DNA of 64,000 bases from Rhizodiscina lignyota (GCA_010015805.1 ML978122.1:2266453-2330452); one strand, 5' to 3'. Numbered from the stretch's first letter, positions 1,362-52,658 are shown. The notes: generated by a model from the sequence alone, not told the origin. Made by a program: numbers and translations.

Positions 1362-1830
1362 GTGATATATCGACTGGAAATTTGGCACTGTGCGAAGGAC
1401 ACGAGTAAAATATATGTGATGTCTTGTGGAGGGTGTATACAAAGGAAAGGAACGCAGTTACTCTATGCATAAGGGGTGAGTGGCGTTTCGGATACGATAT
1501 CCTAGAGCGCTCTAGGTAACTGGAATTCTACCGAGATTTGTCCATGAATCGCAAGAAAATGGAGAGAATTGTCGACGTCTTCCAATCGATCACAAGACTA
1601 CCGATGGTGCCTCTGAAATTCATCGAACACTAACTGCGCAGTCACTATTCGGAGCTCAAAGAGAGCCATTTCCTCTGGGAATCTGATCCTACTTGGGAAA
1701 AGCTTCTAGTCGCACAGTTCATAAGCCGAAGCCTGATTTGTATCGCGCTGCAAATTGCGATTATCTAACATACCAACCCAAGCTGAAAAGAAACATAGAA
1801 GTCAAACTTTTGGCTATTTCCCCTACTAGA

Positions 1831-3463: not shown

Positions 3464-3719
3464 TTTGAGGGACGTCTAAACTATTCACTGCCAAACGAAA
3501 GATAGAGAGATGAGCCCTTTTCAATATTTACTAAATGCGATCCAACTTATACAAGACGCATCTTGTCTGATCCAAAAAGTGAAATGCGGCGCGTTGCCCG
3601 ACTTAGGGACGTTACACAAAGATTCCAATTATTGAAGATGTCGTAAGAAGCTGAGAACGCAAATGATCTAGACAGTTAGAGATAGGCATCTTCAGCCACT
3701 CAGAGTCTGGGTAGAATCC

Positions 3720-3766
3720 TGCGATAACTTGCGATAACTTGCGATAACTTGCGATAACTTGCGATA
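3720..3766. repeat. Tandem 10-nt repeat (GCGATAACTT) x4.5
   Basis: Directly visible perfect tandem copies between the divergent UGT and RPB8 genes. Confidence 0.9.
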
Positions 3767-4218
3767 CAACGATTAGTGAAATGGCAATAATGCTGATATC
3801 TCTTTGCCCAAAGGACTCCCGGAGTCATAGCCTCTAGAACTTGGCCCTTTATGTATTGTACCAACTGCTAGTAGAAAGCATAGGTCAGTAAGACGGAAGG
3901 CCTGTGGCCTTGAGGGGAGGAGAAAAGAGGAAATGTTAAGCTACCGGCCGTACTCCGTAGGGCTGGATTCGGCTTGGTGGCTTGCATGCCAAGCCTTGCC
4001 CGGGCTTCTCCACAAAAAATTGCAGCTCTTGTCGATGCGACAACTGCCACCAAATTCCAGAAGCCGACACTCGCGAATTGGGGAGAGTTGTCCTGCGCCG
4101 CAACTAGAGAACAATCTACGCCCAAAAATCTTCTTGCCCACAGTCCGTATTGCGCATTGTGTGCACCGCAATCCAGCGCTCCCCTTCTTCCACCGCGACT
4201 CACTCCTCTACCGCGACC

Positions 4219-4740
4219 ATGTCGGACTCCACTCTCTTCGAATCAACCTTCCAAATCAACTCGGTCAATCCCGGCCGTTACGACCGTGTCGTACGCATCT
4301 CAGCCACCAGCTTAGAGTCCGACTCAACCTCTTCCATCACGCTCACACTCGACATAAATTCCGAGCTCTACCAGCTCACGGTTGGCGAAAAGGTCGATGT
4401 ATGTCTGGCATCAACACTGAATCTCGATGGGAGCAAAGATAGCGATCAGCGAGGCTTCAGAGACGTGAGCAGGAGTGGCCCTGCCGCGAGCTTGGACACA
4501 ACCCAGACGCTTGCGGATTCCTTCGACTACGTGATGTTTGGAAAAGTGTATAGGTTCGACGAGGGCGAGGGAGAGAACATGTGGGTAGTCTTGATATCGA
4601 TGATATCGATAATGGATATACTGATTTTATGCAGAAAGATGTATGCCAGCTTCGGAGGGCTGTTGCTCTTCATTGAGGGACCCTACAAACGACTCACACC
4701 ATTGAGGATCGACTACCTCTACCTGCTCATGAAGAAATGA
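4219..4740 (+). CDS. RPB8: RNA polymerases I/II/III shared subunit RPABC3
   Basis: MSDSTLFE...YDRVVRI...LTLDINSELY...LADSFDYVMFGKVYRF...YASFGGLLL; one intron about 4582-4634. Confidence 0.95.
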   Translation: MSDSTLFESTFQINSVNPGRYDRVVRISATSLESDSTSSITLTLDINSELYQLTVGEKVDVCLASTLNLDGSKDSDQRGFRDVSRSGPAASLDTTQTLADSFDYVMFGKVYRFDEGEGENMWVVLISMISIMDILILCRKMYASFGGLLLFIEGPYKRLTPLRIDYLYLLMKK

Positions 4741-4970
4741 TGTTGGTCATCACATATCCCGAAATAACGAACTCATCGATTCAATCGATTCGAACAAAAG
4801 ATAACTGAGCTCCCAAATGGCTGGCTACCTGAAGAGCACAGCCAGCACGGGGATGAGATTGAGCTCCGCTGAAATGGGCACCGAAATGATGAACTGGTTG
4901 GGTTAAGACGCGAGCACTCTACGTTTTGGGGTATCTAAAGCGAGGACGCTGCTTTTGTTGGTCTCTTCTT

Positions 4971-5975
4971 CTAAGCCAACGGAAACTCAAGTCGTCTATG
5001 CAACCGCGTAGTGATCTCGAGATAGTCCCTCTCGTCTTCCACAGTTATGAGACCATGTCGAATCAAGAAATCCAGTATGACTAGAGCACAATTCGGCTTG
5101 AACTCTCTCTTTCCAAGTGCTTCTCTGACCTCACTCACGCTCCAGTGATAAAACTCTTCTACCTCATCGTCATTTGGTTTCGGTACCACACTCCCATCGC
5201 TCGGCAGCTCCAGGTCATAAACGTTCTGGCACTCTGGCTGGAACAGTCCAGTCTCCCCGCCCGCCGTCGCATTCCGAATATAAAAGTACGTGACCGTGCC
5301 GCACTGCTTTGCCTTCGACCGCACAAGCTCCTCAGGTAATGAAGCCTCCTCATCACACTCCCTCACCAGACTCTCAAAGAAGCCTTCACCGGTTGCTGTC
5401 CCACCGGCCACAGTGTTGTCCAACATGCCTCCATATGTCTGCTTCGTCCTTGCTCTGCGTGGCACCCAGATCTTGTATTCGTCCTTCCCGTCTGCGCCAG
5501 TGGTTCTCGTGTACGCCGTCAAGTGCACCCCATACGTGACAATTCCAAAGAGCGGTGCAGCGCAGCGCTCCATGCTGAACAACAGCTCTTTCTTTTTACT
5601 TGCCCCTGAAGGCGGCCCGTATACCGGGTATAACTCGTTGCGCCATTTTTCCAGCACTTTAAAATGCCCCGTCATTCGCATCGCTTCCGTCGTCCGTGCT
5701 ACAACATCGCTGCGCGCTGCCTCGTTCGATCCCGAAATCAAGGTTATTGTGCGCGGGATGGACTCATCGTCAACTTCCCAGTCTGGAAGATTATGCAGGA
5801 CTGCAGCTACGTCGGGTAGGATGTAGCCAAGTGTAGTCTCTGGGTGCGCCGCAACGCGAAGGTGGTAGAGCGTGGTGGTGTAAGCATGGTAGGCTTGCGG
5901 TGAGGTCGTGGGGTGGGGAAAAGAATCACATTCGTTTATGAGGTCGAGATTGGATGCTGGTGGATTTGAAGCCAT
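4971..5975 (-). CDS. Nudix hydrolase (thiamine pyrophosphokinase-related, YJR142W/NUDT20-like)
   Basis: WRNELYPVY, ERCAAPLFGIVTYGVH, WVPRRARTKQTYGGMLDNTVAGG, Nudix box GEGFFESLVRECDEEASL, FKPNC. Confidence 0.85.
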   Translation of the reverse strand: MASNPPASNLDLINECDSFPHPTTSPQAYHAYTTTLYHLRVAAHPETTLGYILPDVAAVLHNLPDWEVDDESIPRTITLISGSNEAARSDVVARTTEAMRMTGHFKVLEKWRNELYPVYGPPSGASKKKELLFSMERCAAPLFGIVTYGVHLTAYTRTTGADGKDEYKIWVPRRARTKQTYGGMLDNTVAGGTATGEGFFESLVRECDEEASLPEELVRSKAKQCGTVTYFYIRNATAGGETGLFQPECQNVYDLELPSDGSVVPKPNDDEVEEFYHWSVSEVREALGKREFKPNCALVILDFLIRHGLITVEDERDYLEITTRLHRRLEFPLA

Positions 5976-30463: not shown

Positions 30464-31347
30464 AATAGGAAATATGAGAGGCGGTCAAAGGAAAAGCGAA
30501 CAACATTGCAGTAATTGAAAACTCAGGCTGTATATGTCGGGATACTCTCAGGTCGCAGTTCTGACGATGGACTGGCCGTCTCTCACAACGCTGGAGTCCG
30601 GGCTAGTCAGATATTCATGGATAACGTGAGTGCTGCAGTAACCACCACCATATCGAGAGAGTGTATTCCCGCTGAATTCCCTAAAATATCCACAATCCAA
30701 TGTCGACCATCGTAGATTCCGCTCTTGTTGAGTTCGAACAAGCGTTGATATAAGCAGGGCTATGCATGTGTATCATAAGCAGCTCCTGCACGATAGCTTC
30801 TGACGTGACACCAGGACAAAACCAGAATACGGTGAAAATTGCGTTATTATGCAGAAGCTAGTAGGGGGCCCTGGCTTAGCGCTCATACAGATTGACTACA
30901 CCCAAATTCTTCGCTGGACCTCGGTCTTGTCAGAGCAAATCGTCGCCTCGGAAACACTCACTTATTCCGCCATACTCTAAGAGTGTTGGCAGTTACGCTC
31001 TTCCCGCTAATTCGCCACTCTTTCGAATTAAACTCAGGATGCAGACTGGTTGTAGTCCATACAAAGCGGTCCACAAGAAAGAGTAATGGAGCTGACACGT
31101 CGATGGCGCTGCGATTATTCGGGGATGGAGCTCACGCCCCAATTGCTCCCCTCTCACTTACTGCCACCGTATTGTATCCCAATCGACCGAAATAGAACCC
31201 CCGAATAGGTCATATGCGCATGTCTAAGTATGTAGCGTAGACCCGAAAGTAGGGCATTACAATCCGAGGTGACTTCCATATCGTTGTCTAATCTTCGCCC
31301 TTATTCATTTTACTCTTTTCTGATGTTTGCGATTTCCCATTGATGCA

Positions 31348-33403
31348 ATGGCGCATATACGGAGAGACTTTCACAGCACTAACGCCCCTTACGGAACATA
31401 CTTCGACCATGGATTCTGGTCATCGGAGACATTGCAAGAGAACATGCTGCTTGAGCTGCCGGAGGCTAGGAAGCAACAAGATAGTGCAAGCACGCTCGCT
31501 AGCGATGACAATGACAGCCTCTCCTTGAAGAAGACGAAACCGACGAATATCTATTTGTCCGGATGGAGGCTCTACGCTGCGATCGCAGGGTTCGTCTCCA
31601 CTTGCGTTTATCCTCTACCAATTCATTCTAAAGTAACGAGGGGTTGCAGGTCAATGCTGAGCGTCTCAATGATCTCTATGGAGGCTACTATAGTTGGAGC
31701 CTCAATCGTACCGATAACCACAGATCTTCAGCACTTTGATATTAGCAGCTGGATCTTCTCGGGATATCTGTTGACTTTCGCCAGTTAGACTTCCTAGGTC
31801 TCCGCAAGAATGACTGAGTCTCTAACGATTCTTCTCATAGGCTTCCTGCTCATCTTCGCTAGAATGAGCGACATCTTCGGCCGAAAGCTCGTTCTGCTCG
31901 TCTGTCTGGCAGTTTTCTCACTCTTCTCGCTCGGCTGCGGTTACTCTCAGACGATGATACAACTTATTATATGCCGTGCTTTCCAAGGCATAGGAGGATC
32001 GGGAGTTTATGCGGTTAACCTCACGATGACTCCCGAACTGACAGCGCCGAAGCATATCGCTTGGGTGATCAGTTTAAACTCTGGAGCAAGCCTGCTGATG
32101 TTGATTCTCGGCCTTGTGTTCGGCGGCTTGATCAGCACACATACAACATGGAGGTGGATCTTCTGGTGCATGTCCGTCTATCGTTAGCATCGGGGAAATG
32201 GGTATTTGCTGACTTTACTGTCAGGGCTCCAGCTGGCCTCATCTCGATTGCGTTACTATACATCGCCATACCGAATTCGTTCCCCAATCTAGGTACAACA
32301 GAGACGCCGAGCCAAATGAGTATTCATCCTTTGGGCTTGTGGTCAAGAAGATCGAGAGACTTCTGGCGTAAATTTGACATAATTGGCTCTCTTCTCCTTC
32401 TTTCGACGTCGGTCATGTTTCTCTTTGCGATAGAAGAGGGCAGCAACGACAAGTTCGGATGGAGCAGCGCACCCATTATAACAGGATTCTCTGTTACCGG
32501 GGTCTCTGTGCTTGCCCTCATATGGTATGAGAGGATGCTATCGCGCCAACACGAGGAGAGAAGGACGGAAAGAGAGCCACTGTTAGCAACAACTTTGTTC
32601 AGGGCTCGGCCTGTGGTTTTTATTTTGCTGTGAGTGCTCCGACTCTGCCTAAACATTGCGAGGTAGGGCTCATCAGGTCTCGTCCCATTAGTTTCGCCTT
32701 CCTGACTGGCCTCCCATTCTACACTCTCCTCTTCACTTTGCCAGAGCGATTTCAGATTGTCAACTTCGAGACACCAGTCAATTCCGCAGTCCGTCTCCTA
32801 CCTTTCGTGGCGTTCATTCCTTTCCAGGGCACCATCACGTATCTCACTCTCCGGTTTCAGATTCCAGTGTTGATAATCCTATTTATTAGCGCATCGCTTT
32901 TCCTCGTAGGCGTTGCTGGACTCACAACAGCACCAAAAACATTTAGTACCGGACACTACGTGCTCCAAGCGGTCGCAGGCCTGGGAATTGGTCCATGTCT
33001 TAGCATAGCACTTTCGTACACCACCAACCTCATCCGCAGGAAGAATCCAGATGCCCTCGCTGTCGCAATGGGCCTATTCCTCCAAGCAAGAACCTTGGGC
33101 GGTGCGGTAGGATCTGCACTGACTGCGGTCATCTTGAAGCAGAAGGTCAACCATTACATATCTAACGCCGGACTGGATCCCAAAGCTGTGGAGATCCTCA
33201 GGTATACGCCAACGCTGATAAATACTTTCGGTGACGAGCAGAAAAACCAGGCTTCGAAACTGTATAGCGACATATTCTCGATCGATCTTAAGATGGCTGC
33301 GGGCGCAACAGGATTGGCATTACTAGCACTTTTCGGCTGCTATGAGAAGAAGTGGGCACGAAACGGAAGGAAGGCGAATGCGGAACTCTACGATGAAGAA
33401 TAA
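31348..33403 (+). CDS. MFS multidrug transporter (DHA2/EmrB-QacA type)
   Basis: SWIFSGYLLT, ARMSDIFGRK, ICRAFQGIGGSG, GGLISTHTTWRWIF, RTLGGAVG; four introns. Confidence 0.9.
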
Positions 33404-33810: not shown

Positions 33811-34787
33811 TCATGATGGGCTAAGAAATGCGCCCACAGCCTTCACAGTCTCTTCGAACTTGGCTCCGTCAATCAAAATGACATGGCCGGAAGGCTTCAC
33901 GCCCATTTCCTGGAACGCTCTTTTCGAATCCGACGTTCCCTCATCCTTCTTTGTATAATCGAAATTGCCCCACAACATCGCATGCTTCTGTAGCACCTCG
34001 TCCTCTGGGTGGAAGTAGAACGTCTCTCCCCCCTCACTCTTGCTACCCTTCTGCTTTTTTTTCTTCGCAGGCCGGTCGTCTTCTGCGTCGAGCTTTGACT
34101 CTACCTCAGTGTATGTCTTCGACAAGATGAGATAGTGCGTAAAATTGTACGGCTCTTTCTCTTCCAATGCCCAAGAGATTTCTTCGAGAAGCATGTTATA
34201 CATTGGAGGTACGATTTCAGCAGGCATATTGATGAAACGCTCCGTCAGGATAAGGCCAACTTGTGCGCTGGACGAAGAGGAAAACAGCTGAGAGAGTTGT
34301 GAAAGCGAAGGATGCGTGGAGGATTTGGAGAGAAGGTAAGATGTGAGGTCTTTGATGACTTGCTTCTCCTATGGGTGCATTAGCGCAAATAGCAGATCGC
34401 CAATTCGCATCAGACAAACCCTGTGTTCGTGCAAGTTCAATACCGTCAGGAACGCAAACGGATCTGACTCATTTCCATCAGTCTTGACTGTCGAACCCAG
34501 CAGTGGCTGCGATAATATCAGGTCTACGAGCGCGGAAAGGTCGAATAATTGAGCGTCCACGTCGAAGAGCTGGCGTAGCAGGGTCTTCAGCCCATGGAAA
34601 TCGACGTCAGGCTGCGGGTCGAACCATTCGAAGTCGACATCGAGCATGTCCATGTCCTGCACTTGGGCTTAATTCAGCGTCCTGGATTGAGGTGGGCACA
34701 GGAGAGACAGACCTCATCACTGCCAGAGTCGTCTTCGTCGTCCTTCTGGCGAGTGGCATCCGCCTCTGGGTGTTTTCTCTTTGCCAT
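33811..34787 (-). CDS. BCP1: Protein Bcp1 (BCCIP), 60S biogenesis
   Basis: [62 protein letters not shown]; two introns. Confidence 0.93.
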
Positions 34788-35246
34788 AATCAGATGGACC
34801 AGTGATGGAACGAGCCGAAGAATCTACAGTAGTCCTCAAATAGAGTTGAGTTCTTCTTACGGCGGAGCGGAATAAAACCGAGACCGTGGAAATTTTTGAT
34901 GCACGGACCAACCTCACAAATTCCTAAAGTGGAGAAATCGTTGAAGAGTCACAAGAAAACAAATTATTTGGTTTCTCACTACCTTCTCCCAATTGAGGCG
35001 TTGATCGTCATAAAATCCACCGACAGACTCGAAATACTGGATTAACAAAGCGACGCTCATTTGAAACTCCATTCATCTGCATGCTTTTGCACCAAGTCCA
35101 AAACTTTGAGTGAAGTTCTTTCCGGGTTGTAACGAAAGTTCGCAACCATTTCAACGAACGGAAGGCTCCACTCAAACAGTTGTACACAGTTTGAGAACTC
35201 TATAGTTTCTGCTCCGCACTTTCCCACTTCTCTACAAATCCTCAAT

Positions 35247-36845
35247 ATGGCTGCGCCCAAAGCCGCGTACGACACGGTACTCATCCTGGACTTTGGATCA
35301 CAATATACACAACTCATCGCTCGAAAGCTGAGAGAGCTTCAAGTATATTGCGAGATCCACCCCTACAACCATGTCCCTAAGCTTGAATTCACTCCAATTG
35401 GCGTCATTTTCTCAGGTGGTCCCGCCTCCGTCTACGACGAAGATGCTCCGCATGTCGACGCATCGGTGTTCGAGCTCGGCGTGCCCATCCTTGGCATCTG
35501 CTATGGACTCCAGGAGATGGCGTGGCACTACGATAACAAGAACGTCGCAGCTGGGGACAAGAAAGAGTATGGAAGTGCCATCCTGCAAGTTCAGCGCTTC
35601 AAGGGCCAAATTACAGACGAACTCTTCAAGGACCTCGATGACTCAATGAAAGTATGGATGTCACACGGTGATAAGCTTGCGAAACTCCCATCATCATTCG
35701 TCACTATCGCTACGACATCTAACTCGCCATTTGCTGGCATAGCGCATTCGGAGAAACCATTCTATGGAATTCAGTTCCATCCCGAAGTCACCCACACCCC
35801 ATCAGGCGTTCAACTCCTCCGCAACTTTGCCGTCAATATCTGCAAAGCCAAGCCTGAATGGACAATGGGCAGCTTCAAGGACATTGAGGTTGAAAGAATT
35901 CGTAATTTAGTCGGGCCGAAAGGCCAAGTAATCGGCGCAGTGAGCGGAGGTGTCGACAGTACCGTTGCAGCAAAGCTCATGCACGAGGCAATCGGATCGA
36001 GATTTCACCCTGTGCTAGTGGACAATGGCCTCTTGCGCTTAGATGAGGCATCACGCGTCAAAGAACGATTCACGCGGATGATGGGAATGGATTTGACCGT
36101 GGTGGACGCATCGAAGCGTAATCTGGGGAGACTTGCCGGTGTCACGGACCCGGAGAAAAAGCGAAAAATCATTGGCAATGCATTCATTGAAATTTTTGTC
36201 GAAACCGCTAAGGAAATCGAGGCAGATGCGGCGCGGAACCCAGATGCAGGCGAGATCGAATGGTTGCTCCAAGGAACATTGTACCCAGATGTGATCGAGA
36301 GCGTCTCCTTCAAAGGCCCGAGCCATACGATCAAGACCCATCATAACGTCGGCGGCCTCCCTGAGAAGATGCAATTGAAGCTCATCGAGCCTCTACGGGA
36401 GCTATTCAAAGATGAAGTGCGCAAGCTAGGCCTCGAACTCGGCATTGATGCGGAGCTTGTTGGACGACATCCGTTCCCTGGACCAGGACTTGGTGTGAGA
36501 GTCATGGGCGGGGTAACCGAGGAGAAACTCCAGATCGCGAGACATGCGGACAACATTTTTATCAGGGAGATTAGAGCTGCGGGTATCTACAACGATATTT
36601 CGCAAGCGTATGCGGCCGTCGGAGAAGAGCGCGCAGTCGGAGTCATGGGCGACAGGAGATACTATGGTAGGATACTGTATCTGAGGGCGGTACAGACAGT
36701 TGATTTCATGACGGCAACATTTTACCGATTCAATTGGGACTTTCTGGATATGGTGAGCACGAAGATTGTTAATGAGGTTGTGGGTGTGAGTCGGGTAGTT
36801 TACGATACGACAAGTAAGCCTCCCGGAACGATTGAGATGGAGTGA
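35247..36845 (+). CDS. GUA1: GMP synthase (glutamine-hydrolysing), intronless
   Basis: LDFGSQY, GICYGLQ (catalytic Cys), [52 protein letters not shown]. Confidence 0.96.
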
Positions 36846-38058: not shown

Positions 38059-38550
38059 CTAATAGCCTTCCTGGTCACGCTTGAAGTTGACCTCATCCGC
38101 ATTCTTCCACTGGGTCGGGTTCATCGCCATACGCTTGTAAGCTTCTTTGAACTCCAGCTCAGCTTCGGGCTTAGCGTCACGCTTCACCTTGTACCCTTCT
38201 TGGTCGCGCTTGAAGTTGACCTCGTCTGCGTTCTGCCACTGAGTCGGATTCATCGCCATGCGCTTATAAGCCTCCTCGGAGGCTTCAGGCTCAGCTTCAC
38301 GCTTAACCTTATATCCCTCCTGATCGCGCTTGAAGTTGACCTCATCTGCGTTCTGCCACTGGGTCGGATTCATCGCCATGCGCTTATAAGCTTCCTCGGG
38401 CTGGGCATCACGAACATCCAGAGCTACAACAGCGGTGTGAGCATCGTCTCTTGATAGAGATTGACGACAACTCTTACATTTCTTCTCAATCATCGGAACT
38501 GCGGCGACGAAAGCGGCAATTGCAGCAACGACGATGGCGTTCCACTTCAT
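38059..38550 (-). CDS. Secreted Kex2-processed repeat protein (KEP); candidate RiPP precursor
   Basis: Signal peptide MKWNAIVVAAIAAFVAA; probable 54-nt in-frame intron 38477-38424 (GTAAGA..GCTCAC..TAG); three KR-flanked MAMNPTQW(Q/K)NADEVNF repeats, each followed by DQEGY. Confidence 0.9.
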   Translation of the reverse strand: MKWNAIVVAAIAAFVAAVPMIEKKCKSCRQSLSRDDAHTAVVALDVRDAQPEEAYKRMAMNPTQWQNADEVNFKRDQEGYKVKREAEPEASEEAYKRMAMNPTQWQNADEVNFKRDQEGYKVKRDAKPEAELEFKEAYKRMAMNPTQWKNADEVNFKRDQEGY

Positions 38551-39248
38551 GATTGCGGTGGTTTAAAGATTGAAGTTGGTAATTGAGGTACAGATGTCGG
38601 CGAACTCTGGACTGAAAGAGCAATACCTCTTTTCGCTGACGCTGTGAGGCCTTTATAGAGCGTGATACGGTACGCCTTGAAGAACGCAAGCGATCTCCTG
38701 CCCCAGTCAACCTGGGCTTGATTGGTTCATACTGTGCGTTTGATTGTAGACGCTAGTATATCAATAACTGCTCTTCTTTCGGCAATGTCAAGTTCAAGTC
38801 TCCACCAGGACGCTGGCTATTTGCTTCCGCGGCATTGGATGAGACCGATTGCCCCAATTTGGCAATGTGACACTCAAATCCGGGTCTTCATGCAATGGGG
38901 GTCGCTCAGATACGTTGCATGTGGCGGTTGAAGTAATCCTGGATTGACGCATGTCCCTGTACAGAGTCGACTTGGATGTTTCAACCCCTCCATGTAGCCG
39001 TTACGGTGAGCTGTAATCCATGGTTTTTTTAATGCTGATGAGAGCAGGTGCGATAAGGGCGGCTGAGAGCTTTTCCTCATACGAGTGATCTTCGTCCTCG
39101 TCACATTTATCCGCGTTACAAAGCTGCAAGCGAACTTTGCTTTGTCCATGTTGTCTTGAAAGCTCATTTGTCTGCTCTTGATTCTTGAGCTCATATCCTC
39201 ATCAAAACCTCAAACTCTCAATAGCCAAGATTTTGTGGAATACGCAAA

Positions 39249-40294
39249 ATGAAGTCGTTCTTTCAGCAAATTCATCGGAAATTCTTAATCATGGAGAAAG
39301 ATTTAGAATCATATGCTCCGCTTCGGCGAGGTTCGGCATCTCTCAGCGACGAACACCTTGATGCCACCATCTATCAAAGACAACCAAAACGGCGAGAATG
39401 GCTTTGGAGAGGCTCTGCCCTATTCCTCCTCGTAACGGTCAACATCATGGTTCTATTCATAATCTTTCATTTTAACAAGCGCATGGCTCCTGCAAACAAT
39501 GAGCCTGAACCCCCAGAGTTTGGCTACGGTATGGATCACTAAAGCGATATATTCGCTTGCAATGACTAACAAGTATATAGCTCCCATTGAAGAACTTCCC
39601 ACTGTATATAGACGTTTCGATTGGTGGACAGCGTATTCCAGCGACAACACCACGGAAAGCGAAAAGTCTTGGGACGATATCAACCCGGCTCACGGCTTCA
39701 TTGCAATGGATAAGCAATGGGCAAAAGAGCACAATTGGCCGGACTCCATGTATCCTCCGGACGACAGGAACAAGAAGGTGTATCTCTTAGAGGCCTACCA
39801 TCTCCTGCATTGCTTGGTAAGAGGGCGTTGTACAGCAGTCTTCGCTTTGTACTGATTTTACTAGACTGTGACGCGGAAGACCTTTTGGCAGGCTGTGAAC
39901 GGTGAAGAGCTGTACTGGCGTCCACCACATGTTGCCCATTGTCTCGACATGCTTCGTCAAGTAAGCCACGAAGTATCACATACAAAATGAGAGTGCTAAT
40001 TCTGCAAAGTATATTGTGTGTAAAGCAGACAATACACCGCTCTTCACCTTTGGTGACAACACAGCTGGAGATGAACAGTACCGAAAGTGCAAGAGTTGGG
40101 ATGCGCTCCGCGATTATGCAACCGAAAACTCAGCGTGCTACCGTGACGTTCCAAAGGGTGTCGATCGCGACAACTTTTCATTAGGAGAACACTTCGGCTA
40201 CTGCGATGGCGGGTACGATGGTGTTATTGTTGAGGCAGATAGACGAGGCAACTGGGAGCATGGTGCTCTCCACAGAATAGACGAGGTCGCTTAA
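39249..40294 (+). CDS. DUF3328/UstYa-family oxidase #1
   Basis: N-terminal TM helix. Introns 39529-39580, 39817-39864 and 39961-40009 give WDDI, EAYHLLHCL, HVAHCLDMLRQ-YIVCKADNTPL, CKSWDAL (two HxxHC motifs). Confidence 0.9.
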
Positions 40295-42432
40295 GGGACG
40301 GGCGGTGCGGCCGCAGAGATCTCAGAAGTCCCCTGTAAGGACCCATGGGTGTGGATCGGCAGTGTGATTTGGACGCCATCGCAAGGCATGGATTGCCAGA
40401 CTTGGGAGGAGAGACAAGCTTTACTCCGTACCACTACTACTATCCGCATCGAAAAGTCAATGAGTAGAAAGACTGCCAGACATTGCTGCATGTTGGATTA
40501 GAGTTCTGACGGGAGAAGGTTACCTAGGTAGGTAATTTGGGCTAATCAAAGTCGAGCTGGATTCTACTCGCTCGCTCATATGCCTGCAATGCTGCATCAT
40601 CTCCCCGGTGAGCTTATGCCCCTTCGCTGCGACTCTACTTTGGCTACCAATTCACCGGAAGAAAGTCCTACTGGCGCCTTATGCGGATCAGCGTCACGAA
40701 GTCCCGGAAAGGCACATCGGTTAAACAGCCCGAACATTGGGCATGCCATACGGCCCCTACAGCTTGGATCAAGGCAGATCTAGTTCGAGACATGTGCTCA
40801 GTGCATACGTGCATGCTTTCGACAAATTTCCCCAGACTCAAATGATTATTGTCAACTTCTCCAGAACTTGCGAGTCAGTACTTGCGAGTTAGTACCGGGG
40901 TAGACTCTCGACATCTCGCACTGCGAGCTACATTTACCCCTTGGCCATGCTCATCAAGTATGCACTTCTTGGTGCTTGAGAGTACATCGAAGTACTGATC
41001 ATGAAGTTTTCCAGGATCCACGCTTCGCTTGAAAGGCACTTGGTGGGTCCCACGGTACGTCAGTAACATCTCTATTTAGCGAAGTCGTGCGCGATATGCA
41101 TGTAACACTCTGTCCCGTGCACACGCGAGCTGTCACGTCGTCAATGCAGGAGTTCTGAATTGAGCTCAACACTTGTAGATTCATCGAGGTCCCCACTCAA
41201 GCGGTAAGTAGCAATACCTCCTTCCGGATTGGAATACTCCAATAGCATTTGGTATTCAGTCGAAGGTGATGAATATGATCGAGACCGCCTTAAACAAAGG
41301 ATCGGGATCCAAGCAGAATCGCAGTCATCAGAATTCTCGCAGTCAACGGGAGACAGCGAATAGTCTGACTCTGTACTATGGTAGAGCTTCACACTGCAAA
41401 GCCAGAAGGTCAGCACATCAAGCTGTCTCAGAACGACTGCATCTTGATCATGACGCCTCGGGCATGCATGTAACTTCTTGCCGAACATTTGCAAAGGTGG
41501 TACAATGCTCAGAGGTGTCGTTACATCCTTGCTACATTTGTTCACGTAAGCAGCTCTCCTGGAGCAGACGCCACATCCGCCATCAGGTTATTAACCAATC
41601 GAGTTAGACTTCCGCAAGTGTCTTGCTTGCCTTCCCATGAAACATCTTCCACAGCTCAGCATGCCGACACCATCATGCGGAGTTACGGCTTCTTCAAGAT
41701 CGGGTCATGCCTGCCGCTGATGGTCAGAGCTGAACGGCCCTTGCAACTCTCGTATGTTCTCATGCCGGCCTGCTCTACCGTATCCAGTACCTGACGGACA
41801 TCGGCTTATCTTGCCATCGTCTACTGTAGAAATAAGCTCGCCAGATCAGAAGACTAGCGAGGTCCCCATCATGTCGACTCCACAGTAAGAAGGATGGGTG
41901 CATAGCTGTGACGGGCTACCCGTCCTTTCGGAAACAGGAGACTTCCATTATCGATATGGCTTTCACTCTGACAACCTATCGCATACCGAATCCAGTAGTA
42001 CCATTGCGTATCATACTGTAATGGCAGCCGAACCGAAGCTCGAAATGGGCATTGAACTCTTCTCGCCCGAGTCAAGCGTCTATGCTCTCTCTTACACCAG
42101 CAGATCTTCTGTCGATTTCCTAATCTTTATTTCGTATATACATATCACTCAGCACTTTGCTTCATACAGTGATTGAGCATTTAAACAGCCCCCAAATTTC
42201 GACGACACATCGCACGGGCGGTCCCATAGACTGGAAATATGAGCACTGCTCCATAATACATCAACAATAATCACATTCTGCCCTGCAAGCAGCATCTCAC
42301 TCCGAAACTCCAGAGTCAACGGAGACTAGTTTCAGGACGCACTTTTCCGGGGCACCGCGTGCATGGCTTTTTCCCTTCCCAACCTCTCTTGAGCGCCGCT
42401 CTAGTTCGATCTCTCAACAATCTATCACGCTC

Positions 42433-43261
42433 ATGTCTTCCGATGATGACCTTGAAGACACTCCACTGCATCCTGAGAAAGATGATCTTGAGATACCTCG
42501 GCGTTGGAGGAGGCGGATACCAGTCATAGACAGCCAAAAACTCTTTCAATACTGGACTATCTTCACAACGACGCTTTGCGTATTCCTGCTTCTGCTGCTT
42601 TATTTTCAAAGTCCCATTATCGAGTATGCCGGTGGAGGTCTGAAAGACATTAGAAATGGCTTCTATGATGCGGAGGACAGATGGGTGAAACAAGATGTTG
42701 TGCCAACACGATACCATCGCGATCTGCGATATATGACGATTGATCATGACAATGATTGGTTATGGCAAGAAGATTCAGATCCACACGCCGGATTAATCTT
42801 GATGCCCGCAAGTGATGGCTCGGACAATGCCACGGAGAGATCGATTAGCATGTAAATGCCACTCAGCAGCCTCATTCCACTTCGGAGCTAAACTGAAGCA
42901 GGTTTCACCAACTTCATTGTCTGTCATCGATGCGGAAGGCCATCCAGGAAGCGAAAGACGGGAAAGATATTGGAACCGACTACAGAGACAACACACACTG
43001 GCCGCATTGCTTTGACTATTTGCGATCGGTAAGGTTCCACAATCGGGATCTTCGAACTGTGCGCTAATGCAGGATTTGAAGAGCATTCTCTGTGCTGCCG
43101 ACGGAACTCTCGAAAGACCGACAACCGTTCCGCATCCGATCAAAGGCAAGGTCGAACTTATTGATGGATCCGATGATATCAGGTATTGTCGAGATAATAA
43201 GCCTCTGTACGAACTCTGGAGAGCTCATGGACAGTATGGGCAATTCTCAGGGATAGTTTAA
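42433..43261 (+). CDS. DUF3328/UstYa-family oxidase #2
   Basis: N-terminal TM helix. Introns about 42852-42901 and 43029-43081 give ISMFHQLHCLSSMR, HWPHCFDYLRS-SILCAADGTLE, CRD (two HxxHC motifs). Confidence 0.9.
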
Positions 43262-44062
43262 ACTGTACAAATATAAATTCAATGTTGGTACGTGATGCCG
43301 ATGAACTCGTGATCTTTCTTTTCTGATCTTTTGCAATATGTCCTTTTCTATTCTACATTTTGAACTTTCAAACCCAATTCATACGTACAGCATTCTCCGC
43401 GGCAAAAAGAGCGATGTATTCCAGGGCCCTGGCGCTGATCCCGTGGCGCTGTGGTGTTAGCGCCTGAAGGATCAGATCTAGACTTGTCGCAGACACTGCA
43501 TATGTATGCCGGAGCTGCAACTCCGGTGAAAGAAGAAAGCGAGAGGAAATTCAATTGCCAACCGGCTCTGAGAGATTCAGCAGGAGGTTGATCAGTGATC
43601 TAGACTCAAGTACATCAAGATGCGAAAGCAGAGATTCGATCTTTATTTTGGCAAATATGAAGTTCGATTTACCTCTCAAGCTATGATGGAAGCCTTACGC
43701 GAAAATCGCCTGGCAGGATAAGGTGAGTGTGGCGACGCTAGTGGCATGTTTGGCATGTCTGATCGCAATCCCAGCAAATCATCAAGCCAATCAGCGTCGT
43801 ACCGGAGATGTCTCCTTACCAGGGCGCCAGTTCTTAAATGTGGCGCGCGGGGTTCTTTCATCAGTCTTCCATCATGTGTGCCCTGAACTTGGAATAGTTT
43901 TGGAACTGAGAGCAAAGATGCTACACATGTCTTAACAGAGCACGAATGATCAATGTGGGTTGATTGATTAAGGAAGGAAGCTCTCAAGGAGAAGTGCTCG
44001 TTTATATACGGGGGAGCGCTATTTAACTAACGGCTAAGGGTGCGCACTGATCGCCTCCTGAC

Positions 44063-46681
44063 ATGTCTGGAGAATATCGATTGATTCTCCCAGCTGCAGC
44101 TGGAAGAAACCAACCAAAAAGGCCAGAAAACCCATCTAAGGGCAAGAGGATCGGGACCACCGCGGCTTGTGGGAGTTGTCGGAAGAGTAAGATCAGGGTT
44201 TGTGCCTCACGGCTACTTGCCTTTTCTCACTGACTTTTTATTCATTAGTGTTCTGGAGAAAGACCGACATGCGAAGCGTGCCGAGACAAAACCCAAGCCT
44301 GCGAATATGATACACTTCCAGGCGAATCACGAAGCGGCTCGCTTAGAGCGAAGAACGAGCGACTAGAAACTGATCTTACTACCCTGTTGGAAATTTACTG
44401 GTCTGTATTTCTGTTTTCTGTTCCTGAGAATCCTCCGAGAGATCTGACCTTCATTAGGTTTTTACAGACCAAGCCAACATCGGAGGCCGAGGGAGCTCTG
44501 GCATCCATACGCTTGGGAGCGGAACCTTCCAGAGTGCTGGAAGCCTTGCGCTCAAACCGGAACTCATCCTCTGCCCAAGATAGTTCAAACTCCGTCCTGA
44601 ATGGTGTGGACTCCTCCCCGCACGATGGCGAAATTTCCATGCAAGATATCTCAAATTCCACCCCACATCCAGGATCCTCATTTCAATCCGATCATTCCTC
44701 CCGGTCTGAATCTGCCTCTCAGACTCCCGGGTCTAAGATAACCGTCATACACGAAGGCGGAACTGCGGCTCTTTCACCGGAAGAACCCACTTTCCAAGCC
44801 ATGCTCAGGTCACCGAATACCATTATGGCACTGGAGCGCGGCGTCGAGGCATTTCACACATGCACTGGATGCATCTTCCACATCTTCGATCAGAATGAAG
44901 CTAAGGAATTGCTCTCTACCGTAATCCCGGTCATTAGAGAGGCCGGCGAGAACTGGCCACTATTGATGCTTGGAGATTCGACGCTCACTCCTTTGAAGGC
45001 TTCCTTGTGTGGAGTCAGCATTATGGCAGCAATTGGCTTACAATACACGAAAGATCCAATTCCAGCTCTGGGCTCGAACCATCGGAAAAGAATGGGACGT
45101 ATCCTTACGTAACTATTTTCTATGAGCTATCAAGGCATTTGATGGAAGCGGCCATCGAAAACAACGCCCTCGAGGCCATGAAAATATGCGCGGGCTTGAG
45201 CATGTATAACATTATTGGGCATTCGACCATAGCGTTGGCTTATACTGGTACGTCGAACCCAGCTGCACAACCCACCTTTGCTTTGGCATGAGATGTACTG
45301 ACAGTTTCAAGACATGGGCCTCAATATTGCTGTTAATATGGGTTTAAATTTCCGCCAGTCCCCTGTTGGGGTCACCCAAGAAAGATGGTTAAACCAAAAG
45401 AGGGTTGCGAGGACTCTTGTAACGTTGCGCGGGTATATATGATGCAGATGTGCACTCCTACAACAGGTGCTGACAGTTAACAGCTGGCTTGTTAGCACTC
45501 TCGGATACGTGCCACGAGATAATATTGGCTTTCGCTCTGCGGTAAGGCCAAATTTGCTGTGAGAGAGTCTGCATTACTTAACCTAATACTTCATCGTACT
45601 GCGCAGGTCCATTGGATGGCCGATCAGGAGGATCTCTCCGGTAAAGAGATTATCCAAAGGGAACTGGCAAAGGTGGTTGAGATCGAAGCCAACCTCCTTC
45701 ACACCGTAAAAAGCTTCACGAACATCTCTCCTCCAATATTTTCTTCGATCCGCGGAGACTTAGCGCGATGGTATCAACAACTACCTGACTGGATGCACTT
45801 GAGTGCACTCATTGGTCCTGATGCCGAGCCGAACCCCCTAAAGAGAACAGTATTTCTTGTACACCTCTTCTACCTCTCCGCAAACATACTTGTAGCTCGA
45901 CTCGCACAGGGAAACAAGGAGTCTCCAGCGGCGCGGTACGATATTGGAGAGGTGAGGATTGCTATCGGTGACGGCTTGCTTGCAGCACGAACAGCAGCTC
46001 GGATACTACAATTGCAGCTCGATGAACAAACGGTCTTTCAAAGGTGTTGGCTTTGCGAGTAATTGCCCCATTCCCCTAATGCAAAACAGAGCGGTAGAGC
46101 TGATTGAACAAATTTCCAGATTTACGTCGTACATGTCCTGCCTTACCCTTCTGCATAGTACCGCGCAGATGATACTACATAACTACCCTGAATCCGCCTG
46201 GCGGAAGGAGCTTCCCTATGCAAAGTCTACCCTTGACGTTCTCGAGCATTGCGGAGCTGTAGACCCGGTGGGGAAGCAATTTGCAGAGATGACGCGAGCA
46301 TATCACGACAATCTTAAAGCACAGGGGCAGGCTGACAACCAAGATATGAACCTCTCAGACGTCGCCATGCCCGATCAACTCGACCATCTCTTCACCACTC
46401 CTTCAGGTGCACCTGCGGAACTCCTCCAAATATCCCAGGAACTCCTCAAACTCATCGGCCGTCCCTTCGGACACTCGTCGAACCTGCACACCGAAGGTTC
46501 ACTCAAAGCTGGCTTTGGCTCTCAGCTCGACTGGAATACCTTTGTCACCTTACCGTTCAACAAAACTCCCTCGGACTCCATGAACAGCATGTCCCTCCTC
46601 TCGAAGGCATTCTCGAGCATGCGCTGGGGCCAGTTTGTTGGATCGTCAAGACCGCATGGATGGGCCATGGTTCCGAGTTAA
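44063..46681 (+). CDS. Zn(II)2Cys6 transcription factor with fungal TF middle-homology region; apparent frameshift near 45070
   Basis: CGSCRKSKIR|CSGERPTCEACRDKTQACEY after splicing; later LARWYQQLPDWMHL and VHLFYLSANIL; several introns. Confidence 0.8.
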
Positions 46682-48340: not shown

Positions 48341-49040
48341 TCGGGTCAAATATATCCCGCGACATTTAACTCCAATCGATTTGCTCCACTTTATTCAATC
48401 GAGAAATAAACTCCTACGACCGCTCTTTGGAAAGCGTACGTGTGTACAGCCTGAAGCTACTATCTGCCGACGAATACGAAGTCCTCTCGTCATCTCTAGC
48501 TAGCTCAATAGCTTCAAACGTATCGCGTACAGGAGATATTCCTTAGATAGGTAATACTTGTACCGCTTCAGGAAAGAGACGCTCTTACTTGAGGAACTAG
48601 ATGGACCCTCCTACGTTCATGGGACAAGAACATTTCATGCAAGAGTGAGTGACTGGACTAGAAATGATAGAATTGGTTAATTGACTGTGACGGTAGCCTC
48701 CTTCGCTGGTCAAGGGCGCCTTAGACAAGGGACCTTTTCATTCCACGTCACCCAATCGTTCAACCTGTTCGCGATAGCTATGCACAAAGACGAACACTCA
48801 GCGCGAGTCGTCCCGCTCCTTCCCTCCCAATCGCCCCCGAAGACTGCGCCGCGATAGTGCTATGATCCTTCGAAGCCCCAGATCACGTCTATACGACCCA
48901 CCTCATGCGAATCCTCGAGGATAATCACGCTTATCCGCTACCCCCCGAGTCAATAACGCGACACACATTTGGATGATGGCGTGGCCCGATTTGGCCAGTT
49001 GGGCTGCACAGAGGATTGACTTGGGTAGGATCGCTATTCG

Positions 49041-50315
49041 ATGGAGTGTGCTGCCGGTTACGGCATGCTACATGCCATTCTAGGGGCTGACGTTGATAAG
49101 AAGCCCCGTGAAGCCAGTGGCAGCTTCTATCTGCAGACCGAGGAATTCTCCTTCAGAGCGGCTTCACACTCCACTCACAGTACCACTGCAACGGCAATGC
49201 TGTCTGACTCTCTTCGCTACACACAATTCCGAGAATGGGATCCTGAGAAAGAGTATAAAAAGACGAAGCTTCATATCAAGCAAACCGATCCAGTTAGTGT
49301 TCGGACCGTTTGCGACTCTGAAGTTACTTCAAGCGGGGCTCTGAGCAGTGGAGAGGGCTTCGTTTGTGAGTTGTTCGTCTGTTGCACCTTCTGCAGCTCG
49401 CTGATCGCTTCAGTTTCCAATGAGACTACCAGGCCAGTTGACCTCTACAGGCAGCAACATGCTGCGGTCGCATGTACCACGCCAATAATGCTGAACCCAG
49501 AGCCCGTGGATGATGGGGTCTCCTTCCATAGCATGTCGGACGAGGATGACACGTACATCGCGAGTGGCACACATCACGGCTGGGCGACCTATACACCTGG
49601 AGAAATTGGAGAGGATGACCCATCAATACTCACCGGTATTATTCCAAGCCTCCCGCTTATCTGTGTTATTTCTGACCAAGATCCAGTACCTGAACACACA
49701 CCTGAACTCTTCAACGGCCATCCTTCACCACCGTCTGCTTCGACAGCTCCCGACCGGGTATGTCCCGACGGGCTCAGCGAACCTCCCCATACGAGCTCAG
49801 TGTCAGCTGCCAAAGGCACAACGCACTTGCCAAATGAAGGAAGCTCGCCCGACGATGCTATCCCGAGAGAGTGCTGCGAACACTGTATGCGAAGCAATGG
49901 TGTTCACCAGCACACATTCATACAGCAGGACATAAAAGACCTACAAGAGAGTGTCTCAAGTCGCCTTGACCACCTTGCGAAATCGGTGGCGGCATGCTTT
50001 CAGATCATGATCTCGTCATCGACTTCGGGAGCTTCGGCTAGCAGCGCTGCACTCGATGAACCACCCCAAGGACGCAGGAAGAGGAAGCGACAGCAGAGTC
50101 CTGACGAAGGTGGAATACCGGACAACAATGATGAGCAGGAGTGGGCGGTGGAGAAGATCATTACTCACAGGGACATACGTGGGCGAGGTAAGGGAAGGCG
50201 CCTGAAGCGACAGTATCTATGCCAATGGCAACATACCTGGATGGATGAGTCTGCGTGTGAAGACTTAGCAGCACTTGACGAATACGAAAGGAGGTTAAGC
50301 ACGGCCTCCAAATGA
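49041..50315 (+). CDS. Orphan protein with C-terminal chromodomain; 5' exons probably upstream and damaged
   Basis: Ends RRKRKR..EQEWAVEKIITHRDIRGRGKGRRLKRQYLCQWQHTWMDESACEDLAALDEYERR, a chromodomain pattern preceded by an NLS-like basic patch. Confidence 0.65.
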   Translation: MECAAGYGMLHAILGADVDKKPREASGSFYLQTEEFSFRAASHSTHSTTATAMLSDSLRYTQFREWDPEKEYKKTKLHIKQTDPVSVRTVCDSEVTSSGALSSGEGFVCELFVCCTFCSSLIASVSNETTRPVDLYRQQHAAVACTTPIMLNPEPVDDGVSFHSMSDEDDTYIASGTHHGWATYTPGEIGEDDPSILTGIIPSLPLICVISDQDPVPEHTPELFNGHPSPPSASTAPDRVCPDGLSEPPHTSSVSAAKGTTHLPNEGSSPDDAIPRECCEHCMRSNGVHQHTFIQQDIKDLQESVSSRLDHLAKSVAACFQIMISSSTSGASASSAALDEPPQGRRKRKRQQSPDEGGIPDNNDEQEWAVEKIITHRDIRGRGKGRRLKRQYLCQWQHTWMDESACEDLAALDEYERRLSTASK

Positions 50316-50743: not shown

Positions 50744-51679
50744 TCATCCAAACCAACCAGAATTCAGGCCTTGCGGATGGAACGGATATTGGCCCCAAAT
50801 CAGACCCTGTTCTTGATATCCGCGAGAAATGTAACTCTGTATGGTCCCAGCAACATTGTAGTATTTGACAGGAATCAGACTCTGTTCGAGGAGGTTTGAT
50901 TGTTTGACGAAGTTTGGTTGCTCGACGAAGTGTGGTTGTTCGACGAAGTTTGGTTGTTCGACGAAGTTTGGTTGTTCGACGAAGTGTGGTTGTTCGACGA
51001 AGTTTGGTTGTTCGACGAAGTTTGATTGTTCGACGAAGTGTGGTTGTTCGACGAAGCTTGGTTGTTCAAAGTCTGACTGCTCGACAGGGCTTGATTGCTC
51101 GAGGTTTGGTTCGAGGTTTGGTTGTTCGAGGTTTGATTGTTCGACGTGGCTTGATTGTTCGTCGAGGTCTGATTGTTCGATGGGGCTTGAGTGTTCAAAG
51201 TCTGACTGTTCGACAGGACTTGATTGTTCGAGGTTTGGTTGTTCGAGGTTTGATTGTTCGACGTGGCTTGATTGTTCGTCGAGGTTCAATTGACTTCTAC
51301 TGGAACCAGGCTCAATGCTCAGCGTAGAGCGATTCTGGAATATGCTTTGCTCCACCGAGGAATCCTTTGCATCTGGCATAGGAATAGCTCGTTTTTGTGC
51401 GATGCGGAACAGCGCGTCCGTATCAGAAGTGTCTTGGTCCGGGAAGAGGCCTCTCACTAGGGCGTCGAGGGCGCGATATCGAATGCTGAGAGTCTCCTGG
51501 CTGCCATAGATTCGAGTCTTCCGAGGTAGCGTAGTCTGGCAGAGTATACCAGCCTGTCTACAGGTCGTACAGCTGTCTCTATTGCGTACACACTTCACTC
51601 TTCGTGTCCTGCAATGATCGCAGCTAGCACGCGCTCGTCGCCTTTTCTCATCTGGGACTCTTCTCTGACCGGATGGCAT
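50744..51679 (-). CDS. Truncated Zn(II)2Cys6 protein with expanded EQxN tandem repeats
   Basis: SCDHCRTRRVKCVRNRDSCTTCRQAGILC, coiled dimer segment, repeat block, then an early stop with no middle-homology domain. Confidence 0.7.
   Translation of the reverse strand: MPSGQRRVPDEKRRRARASCDHCRTRRVKCVRNRDSCTTCRQAGILCQTTLPRKTRIYGSQETLSIRYRALDALVRGLFPDQDTSDTDALFRIAQKRAIPMPDAKDSSVEQSIFQNRSTLSIEPGSSRSQLNLDEQSSHVEQSNLEQPNLEQSSPVEQSDFEHSSPIEQSDLDEQSSHVEQSNLEQPNLEPNLEQSSPVEQSDFEQPSFVEQPHFVEQSNFVEQPNFVEQPHFVEQPNFVEQPNFVEQPHFVEQPNFVKQSNLLEQSLIPVKYYNVAGTIQSYISRGYQEQGLIWGQYPFHPQGLNSGWFG
50885..51290. repeat. Coding minisatellite, 15/18-nt units (e.g. TTCGTCGAACAACCAAAC on the minus strand)
   Basis: Over 20 degenerate units encoding FVEQPN/FVEQPH/EQSNL/EQSDF. 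Confidence 0.9.
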
Positions 51680-52658
51680 TGCCGCTGGAAATGCGCTTAG
51701 ACTGGAAGAAAGGAGCGTAGGTGTGCGTGAGCAAATTATGTGGCTGTTCTCGCTCTAAGCAAAGTTGAGGTGGTTAAGAGTGTGACTGACGTCTTTCTTT
51801 ATTGATTGGGATGAATGGACCTCTATATATATTCATGATTCGTATGACAAAACCAGAAAAAATGCGCCCAAGGAAGAAAGGTAACCCTGCAAAGCACAAA
51901 CTTTGGCCCCTTACCCCAGCCACCACCGTAATAACTAACCGCATACAAAATCTGTTTTCGGTTTGGTGAAATTGGCGATGAAACCCCCGTCACAGGTACA
52001 ATGTCTGGGTTACATTTACGCCTAGTCCTCTTCATTCGCACGTGTTGTTCCAGAGATGGCTAATAAGCCACAAAGGAAGAATAGGCCGTCAACTATGAGG
52101 TGTGCCACACTCGGCGGCTTTTCAAATCCACATATGTCCTTGCGAGTAAGCGGTGTCGGGGTTTGAGGCGACCGGCGTGTCATAGGAGAAGATGATATTG
52201 GGGTGGGGCTGGGTAACGAGTGATTGGTTGTTACTGGAGGCAAGTGACTAGTTGTCACATTCAGAAGAGGAAGCTTCCGTTGCCGACCCGGTTGCTATCA
52301 AGAATCAGATGGAAGCAACCAGCCTGCGGCAATGACATACCTTGCCTTGAAGCTGAAGGCGGGACGTCGAAAACGAGGAAGATGTGCTAGTAATCGAGGA
52401 AAGACTCGCTGAGTGTGCCATGGTGCGTATGACTGGACGAAAGGAAGATGTTGGATGACATGAGTAGAGTCTGTATATTTATGCGATCCACAGAGTTCTA
52501 AACTGCTGCAGAGCCGCATGTGAATGTTGGAAAATTTATGCATTGGTTGATGTGCTTTCCTTTGCGAGGCTGCATTTCTGCTATGCAGAAGCGCCGCCAC
52601 AGCGCAAAGAACCAAGCCTTTGGTATACCCAAGCATCATTTCATCGAACATGTTTGCC

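Follow-up and report, generated by a model that had tools for sequence, protein, structure and literature searches.

A compact UstYa-type peptide cluster in Rhizodiscina lignyota probably belongs to a conserved precursor-oxidase family of ascomycetes

The stretch of DNA analyzed here, hereafter called the window, comprises 64,000 nucleotides from Rhizodiscina lignyota, a dothideomycete of the order Aulographales (GCA_010015805.1 ML978122.1:2266453-2330452). An original prediction had placed in it a compact dikaritin-type gene cluster for a peptide made on the ribosome and modified after translation (RiPP), consisting of a secreted precursor with three repeats delimited by lysine-arginine (KR) sites, a divergent DUF3328 gene about 700 bp away, a second DUF3328 gene, and a Zn2Cys6 regulator. 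We recovered all four genes at the positions given there, with an intergenic distance of 698 bp, and the combination of a secreted KR-repeat precursor with two UstYa (DUF3328) genes and a Zn2Cys6 gene is indeed a dikaritin-type signature. The genes and the region between the divergent pair are as follows.

38059-38550 (-): precursor gene NA57DRAFT_72205, with exons 38478-38550 and 38059-38423 and an intron at 38424-38477.
38551-39248 (no strand): intergenic region of 698 bp between the divergent precursor and UstYa-A genes, presumed to contain a shared promoter.
39249-40294 (+): UstYa-A (NA57DRAFT_72206), with exons 39249 (or 39291)-39528, 39581-39816, 39865-39960, and 40010-40294.
42433-43261 (+): UstYa-B, 244 amino acids, with exons 42433-42851, 42902-43028, and 43073-43261 and GT..AG introns of 50 and 44 nt.
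44063-46681 (+): putative Zn2Cys6 transcription factor, its motif split by an intron at 44198-44248; provisional model of seven exons and 769 amino acids.

The precursor is encoded by a 163-amino-acid open reading frame (ORF) at 38059-38550 on the minus strand. Its spliced translation is identical to that of the annotated R. lignyota protein P0001 (NA57DRAFT_72205, 145 amino acids), the 18-residue gap between the two corresponding to a 54-nt canonical intron (GTAAGA...TAG). The N-terminus, MKWNAIVVAAIAAFVAAVP, is signal-peptide-like by hydropathy, the sole criterion used, with a mean Kyte-Doolittle value of 2.5 over residues 4-18. The remainder of the protein carries three copies of a 27-amino-acid unit, AYKRMAMNPTQW(Q/K)NADEVNFKRDQEGY, which are separated by KVKR and acidic spacers, and it contains eight KR sites in total. 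Tandem Repeats Finder returned a period of 120 nt with 89% matches. The C-terminus reads ...DQEGY, followed by the stop codon. The three units lie on the minus strand as follows.

38311-38391 (-): repeat unit 1, AYKRMAMNPTQWQNADEVNFKRDQEGY, in which the 14-mer conserved in the family is NADEVNFKRDQEGY.
38191-38271 (-): repeat unit 2, the same peptide as unit 1, with seven synonymous codon differences.
38062-38142 (-): repeat unit 3, with Q replaced by K at one position and 9-11 synonymous differences; the stop comes immediately after its tyrosine, as in most relatives.

Pairwise comparison of the three 27-codon units gave 7, 9, and 11 synonymous differences versus 0, 1, and 1 nonsynonymous ones, while the spacers between them vary in both sequence and length. 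Because the codon differences between units are mostly synonymous, the repeat is under protein-level constraint (purifying selection) and is not a chance reading frame. With its repeats, secretion-like start, and KR separators, the protein fits the definition of a Kex2-processed repeat protein (KEP) in the sense of a 2020 survey (PMC7329392). Repeats flanked by Kex2 (KR) sites, one of the features by which dikaritin precursors are recognized, are likewise present, although they do not mark where the conserved segment described below begins and ends. The Atlas structure model has a predicted local distance difference test score (pLDDT) of 0.42, and the precursor is therefore not predicted to fold. 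All of its language-model neighbors in the Atlas scored below 0.9 and were treated as leads only. Pfam matches of the precursor to NAC and Trp_ring were rejected as spurious, since no single stretch passed and the scores were summed over the repeats.

UstYa-A starts 698 bp from the start codon of the precursor, from which it is transcribed divergently. Our four-exon model equals the annotated protein P0002 (NA57DRAFT_72206) except for an upstream ATG. The original prediction had claimed two intact HxxHC motifs in each oxidase once spliced, and these were confirmed: HLLHC (39799-39813) and HVAHC (39928-39942) in UstYa-A, HQLHC (42906-42920) and HWPHC (42996-43010) in UstYa-B. Comparison with PF11807, proposed there as a check, gave 95 bits for UstYa-A and 38.7 bits for exon 2 of UstYa-B by itself, at a cut-off of 25. 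Both genes, lying 0.7 kb (UstYa-A) and 3.9 kb (UstYa-B) from the precursor, thus encode what a dikaritin cluster is expected to have near its precursor, a UstYa/DUF3328 protein with two HxxHC motifs. UstYa-A has an N-terminal transmembrane helix, and in an AlphaFold2 model built from a 10-sequence alignment (mean pLDDT 41.8) a helix at residues 34-64 was the sole confident segment. A search of the UstYa-A profile against PDB sequences returned no matches at E up to 1. The 2.1 kb between the two oxidase genes (40295-42432) hold only short ORFs without Pfam matches and show no similarity to the related loci described below; they may be noncoding or hold an unrecognized gene. A promoter and terminator scan of this interval performed no better than on shuffled sequence, the consensus used being bacterial and irrelevant to this fungus.

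Orthologs of UstYa-A with 60-66% identity were found in Dothideomycetes, Leotiomycetes, and Trichophyton, the genomes being those of Lophium mytilinum, Mytilinidion resinicola, Zopfia rhizophila, Clohesyomyces aquaticus, Polyplosphaeria fusca, Zasmidium cellare, Mollisia scopiformis, and Trichophyton spp. A metagenome scan with an alignment of the precursor yielded 130 stretches matching the pattern, none of which was confirmed by tblastn. When UstYa-A aligned with nine named orthologs served as query in the same kind of scan, 26 loci emerged, which form 12 groups at ≥90% nucleotide identity of the UstYa match. The weak matches of the precursor profile in loci other than L001 (described below) all end in ...V[DN]Lx6Y. 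In strict form, [DEGS]xV[DN][FL]x6Y, this motif occurred 16 times within 3 kb of a UstYa-A match, in 12 loci and the window (142,043 bp, six frames), and not once in the remaining 282,097 bp. A widened form, V[DN][FLIVM]x6Y followed by a stop, was present 0.7-2 kb from UstYa-A in 19 of the 26 loci and in the window, with a single match more than 3 kb away.

Altogether, a small ORF ending in the motif lies at most about 2 kb from UstYa-A in 20 of the 26 loci (including locus L001, in which the motif is interrupted by an intron) and in 10 of the 12 groups. The two groups lacking such an ORF consist of one 1.2-kb contig and of one pair in which the UstYa gene sits at the contig edge. Three further loci without the motif (L007, L010, and L014) are members of positive groups, and in L014 the flank is shorter than the expected distance. 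In all eight loci for which the upstream stretch was translated, one of them from the L004 group, the motif is preceded by a signal-like hydrophobic N-terminus, usually on a separate exon; the L004 gene was also read directly. Most of the related precursors have one core at the extreme C-terminus. That of L016 has two cores flanked by RR and KR, that of L021 has KRR ahead of its core, and in several the core has no dibasic site close by. Linkage between precursor and oxidase, another dikaritin hallmark, is therefore conserved elsewhere. The original prediction had named precursor homologs without DUF3328 neighbors as an observation that would speak against it; what we found instead was relatives linked to such genes in those 20 loci.

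The UstYa-A of L001 shares 90% identity with a protein of Trichophyton interdigitale, marking the locus as dermatophyte-like, and the gene order of L001 repeats the divergent precursor/UstYa-A pair of the window, followed by an ortholog of UstYa-B (40.7% identity over 199 amino acids, E 1.8e-37) and then by an O-methyltransferase. The precursor profile matched about 1.1 kb from the UstYa match on the opposite strand, where a gene with two introns (approximately 4720-4975, minus strand; spliced by eye) encodes a signal peptide, a propeptide ending in EKR, a single unit, APSYPELALNPTQVTSAEGVDLVAPRIGY, and a stop. A kexin-like protease (2977-4098 and 1768-2976, minus strand) adjoins this precursor gene, with 91.7 bits to S8 and a P-domain fragment at 21.2 bits.

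In 19 of the 26 loci, tblastn detected a further UstYa gene no more than about 6 kb away. Outside L001, these matched UstYa-A and UstYa-B about equally (35-52 bits), and we do not claim them as UstYa-B orthologs. Of the 26 loci, 20 encode an O-methyltransferase, 16 a tyrosinase, and 14 a PF20684 membrane protein; the 64 kb of the window contain no PF20684 protein. Family precursors are thus usually found near a second UstYa gene, and often near an O-methyltransferase and a tyrosinase as well. The UstYa pair, O-methyltransferase, and tyrosinase of the related loci make up the set of enzymes that is classical for dikaritins. At L018:3374-11118, L016:2914-9421, and L008:3958-13180, two UstYa genes are found together with an O-methyltransferase, a tyrosinase, and a small tyrosine-ended precursor.

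Among proteins, relatives of the precursor are scarce. A word-index search of 5.8 billion proteins returned the precursor itself as its sole relative (one match among 42 candidates), and when 1.84 billion representatives were searched in full with HMMER, five proteins, the query among them, passed at E up to 0.001; neither search detected similarity to any named protein. Two of the five are small repeat proteins of environmental origin: P0017, with three units (E 2.7e-7), and P0020, with at least two (E 8.1e-5). The other two, P0018 and P0019, are long repeat proteins that were taken as unrelated. P0018 (1094 amino acids) repeats ...ALNPSQWQxAE..., which recalls the NPTQWQNADE of the R. lignyota unit, but the spacing from the preceding tyrosine differs and we treated the likeness as chance.

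These homologs relocate the core. Every aligned unit of R. lignyota, P0017, and P0020 shares A-Y-x3-A-x-N-P-x-Q-x3-A-x2-V-x-F-x5-G-Y-K. At the first internal KR, R. lignyota has AYKR versus AYDR, AYNI, and SYPE in P0017, P0020, and L001; at the second, NFKR stands against FTAA, FLAP, and LVAP. Since both sites are missing in the homologs, the internal KR sites are, by these alignments, specific to R. lignyota. Moreover, the conserved motif V-[DN]-hydrophobic-x6-Y spans the second of them. The 16 distinct 14-mers collected from the family gave the consensus S-[AP]-[DE]-x-V-[DN]-[FLVI]-x3-[GR]-x-G-Y, in which V and Y are invariant; it corresponds to the last 14 residues of the 27-residue unit, and a stop usually follows directly after Y. 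The KR-delimited pieces MAMNPTQWQNADEVNF and DQEGY, which the original prediction had read as the cores, can on these grounds not be upheld as such. More generally, splitting fungal repeat precursors at KR sites can misplace the core, and it is the corrected position that decides what mass spectrometry should seek.

We therefore consider it likely that the locus forms a compact RiPP cluster dependent on UstYa and belonging to a precursor-oxidase family conserved in several ascomycete lineages. As judged from the translated loci, the family is defined by a small secreted propeptide that closes with the 14 residues S-[AP]-[DE]-x-V-[DN]-hydrophobic-x3-[GR]-x-G-Y, Y normally being the very last, and that is encoded at most about 2 kb from a UstYa-A ortholog or relative. 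What sets R. lignyota apart, by the same comparison, is that the unit is triplicated, that KVKR and acidic linkers separate the copies, that KR occurs inside the unit, and that the cluster is reduced to four genes. What had been guessed from sequence alone is thereby supported as a cluster by conserved synteny. The locus is genuine but of an ordinary kind, and what the comparison adds is a tyrosine-ended 14-mer core common to mostly single-core precursors of several fungal lineages. Such single-core precursors are missed by repeat-based KEP surveys, and the 14-residue C-terminal signature may help to annotate precursors beside the widespread UstYa clade.

UstYa/DUF3328 proteins are needed for macrocyclization through tyrosine side chains in the ustiloxins, asperipin-2a, phomopsins, and epichloecyclins (PMC7329392, PMC10540207). 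By analogy, the R. lignyota precursor would enter the endoplasmic reticulum, where membrane-anchored UstYa-A and UstYa-B, with their HxxHC domains on the lumenal side, would oxidatively modify the conserved C-terminal segment. The likeliest reaction would be a side-chain cross-link at the invariant tyrosine, as in the known dikaritins and epichloecyclins. Kex2 and other proteases would subsequently set the product free. Since the internal KR (NFKR) of R. lignyota falls within the conserved segment, this product may be a short fragment containing the tyrosine or else a two-chain species whose fragments are joined by the cross-link.

Several observations count against this interpretation. The linkage was tested in one direction, the loci having been picked through UstYa-A, and the 26 loci are redundant to the extent that they collapse into the 12 groups given above. 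The motif was widened post hoc, with V, I, and M added at the hydrophobic position after L003 and L004. UstYa enzymes also act in nonribosomal and polyketide pathways (PMC12048977). On the side of the genes, exons 1 and 3 of UstYa-B have no Pfam match, and the introns of both UstYa-B and the transcription factor were predicted from sequence alone. Part of UstYa-B exon 1 was found in no database protein (none of five candidates in a longer-protein search), so the public annotation probably lacks the gene. Furthermore, Pfam searches of ORFs of ≥75-80 amino acids revealed no tyrosinase, O-methyltransferase, or S8 protease in the 64-kb window, and tblastn of the tyrosinase and methyltransferase of the relatives against it gave a best E of 0.22; the cluster may accordingly make something simpler than its relatives do, or be decaying. 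The older five-gene definition of a dikaritin cluster includes both of these enzymes, which the window lacks; a later definition quoted in PMC12048977 requires neither. Finally, both internal KR sites are kept in all three copies while their Arg codons change synonymously, which fits the earlier view that KR sites are used in R. lignyota.

This last point bears on an alternative that we consider unlikely, namely that Kex2 cuts at every KR and that the separate pieces MAMNPTQWQNADEVNF and DQEGY(KV) are cores modified independently by the UstYa enzymes. Retention of both internal sites in three copies despite synonymous codon change, among eight KR sites in all, would be expected if they were cut, as would the exact termination of the last copy at DQEGY, and KR is the normal cutting site of KEP precursors (PMC7329392). 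However, the internal KR is absent from all homologous units elsewhere (P0017, P0020, and L001), the segment conserved over 16 distinct cores crosses the second KR with a fixed spacing from V[DN]-hydrophobic to Y, and around the core of many relatives dibasic sites are lacking altogether. On these counts, delimitation by Kex2 is not a property of the family. Very improbable is the reading that the repeat protein is secreted without modification, as a pheromone-like peptide or another small secreted protein, and happens to lie beside UstYa genes of a different pathway. Such a situation is not without parallel, given that 78% of the surveyed KEPs have no nearby DUF3328 gene (PMC7329392) and that UstYa enzymes are present in non-RiPP clusters (PMC12048977); the nearest language-model neighbors of the precursor also include an alpha-mating-factor cluster, with a score of 0.83 that falls under the 0.9 bar. 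Against this, the adjacency is kept in 10 of the 12 independent locus groups and, with the genes likewise divergent, in a dermatophyte-like genome, no domain of a nonribosomal peptide synthetase (NRPS) or polyketide synthase (PKS) was found in the window, and its cytochrome P450 and MFS genes (28-33 kb) are set apart from the cluster by BCCIP and GMP synthase.

It is also very improbable, in our estimation, that the locus is a decaying remnant that has lost its tyrosinase and methyltransferase, carries UstYa-B as a pseudogene, and makes no product. The absence of these two enzymes from the window, when 16 and 20 of the 26 related loci have them, would agree with decay, as would the absence of UstYa-B from database proteins and the 2.1 kb without recognizable genes between the oxidases. 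Yet every reading frame is open, the splice sites are canonical, both HxxHC pairs are intact, and strong purifying selection acts on the repeat units; moreover, the asperipin-2a cluster functions without a tyrosinase too (PMC12048977).

Beyond the interpretation that we favor, a UstYa-dependent cluster in a conserved family, we tentatively put forward a further step that is possible but that we would not bet on. The window may represent a triplicated, KR-studded offshoot of an unrecognized subclass of UstYa-dependent RiPPs, which would normally have a propeptide with one core, about 55-70 residues long and terminating in ...V-[DN]-hydrophobic-x6-Y-COOH, and the fixed ten-residue spacing would imply a tyrosine-anchored macrocycle much larger than those of the ustiloxin type. 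Rings of ustiloxin-type dikaritins comprise 3-4 residues. In that case, UstY/tyrosinase/O-methyltransferase clusters in dermatophytes and lichen-forming fungi would have their "missing precursor" in this same small gene, which mostly goes unannotated, and in R. lignyota a Kex2 cut inside the ring would give a two-chain peptide held together by the cross-link.

The original prediction had also called the product probably undescribed. In support, the precursor has no named relative; an unfamiliar core is, however, the rule for such loci, to go by PMC7329392, in which 1758 of 7878 KEPs have a DUF3328 gene nearby and 2560 have no homologs. Neither R. lignyota nor these repeat strings are present in three supplementary files of that survey. 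Searches of the open literature turned up neither the precursor peptide strings nor a description of the family or a product assigned to it, and much RiPP chemistry published in subscription journals may bear on novelty. The known cores with which the prediction had contrasted its own were given there as YAIG, YVIPID, FYYTGY, GLKLAF, and INFKIPYTG.

Among known systems, the asperipin-2a cluster resembles the window in combining a KEP-type precursor with a UstYa-family oxidase, in having tyrosine-containing repeats as substrate, and in lacking a tyrosinase and a peptidase (PMC12048977). It differs in having one UstY gene versus the two of the window, and the conserved unit of the window, 14-27 residues ending at a C-terminal tyrosine, is unlike the asperipin-2a core. 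That core, given as FYYTGY in the original prediction, is unrelated to that of the window. Most members of the tyrosine-ended family have a single core, whereas the ustiloxin precursor has 16 repeats. The ustiloxin cluster (ustA, ustYa, ustYb, the tyrosinase gene ustQ, and the methyltransferase gene ustM) shares with the window two UstYa paralogs and a secreted Kex2-type repeat precursor (PMC7329392, PMC10540207). Its tyrosinase and methyltransferase have no counterpart in the window, but L008, L016, and L018 carry the ustiloxin-type set of two UstYa proteins, tyrosinase, and methyltransferase.

In the epichloecyclin cluster (gigA, gigB, gigC, and kexB), cyclization depends on DUF3328 and proceeds via a conserved tyrosine, and the precursors range from multi-repeat to single-repeat between species, a precedent for the copy-number variation seen here (PMC10540207). 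A kexin-like gene lies inside that cluster (PMC10540207), as it does beside the single-core precursor of L001; the window has no protease gene. The epichloecyclin cluster further differs in its single DUF3328 gene, its SET-domain methyltransferase, and its unrelated precursor sequences. In the "Clan R1" clusters of the lichen family Parmeliaceae, a tyrosinase and an O-methyltransferase lie between two UstY genes (PMC12048977), and L018 has the same content and order. The likeness between Clan R1 and L018 is one of gene content and order, and the window has no such accessory enzymes. For the Clan R1 clusters, PMC12048977 reports no repeated precursor and leaves the precursor open. Acalitide (PMC10840396) was judged unrelated, and in a dermatophyte paper (PMC12584700) a DUF3328 gene appears only as a table entry.

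The putative transcription factor gene at the right end of the cluster reveals a C-x2-C-x6-C-x6-C-x2-C-x6-C pattern once the 51-nt intron 44198-44248 is removed. The pattern, CGSCRKSKIRCSGERPTCEACRDKTQAC, occupies residues 36-63 of the spliced model and agrees with the Zn2Cys6 motif C-x2-C-x6-C-x5-12-C-x2-C-x6-8-C. The 769-amino-acid path is open, has canonical introns, and stops at 46681; it is a longest-path model. Four separate exon pieces gave no match to Fungal_trans (PF04082) or any other Pfam family at E up to 1, although fragmentation by introns may hide a domain. A tblastn search at E 1e-4 revealed no counterpart of this gene among the related loci, and L008 carries a different Zn2Cys6 gene.

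Pfam searches on ORFs of the window gave no NRPS or PKS domain. To the left of the cluster lie a cytochrome P450 gene (28637-30216, minus strand) and an MFS transporter gene (31324-33400, plus strand). Because two housekeeping genes, BCCIP (33814-34668) and GMP synthase (35133-36842), intervene, the P450 and MFS genes are probably not members of the cluster. To its right, an open frame of 428 amino acids at 49029-50312 (plus strand) shows a weak chromo-domain match only (E 0.003), and a second Zn2Cys6 gene (Zn_clus, 25.7 bits) is located downstream of the cluster at 50747-51754 on the minus strand.

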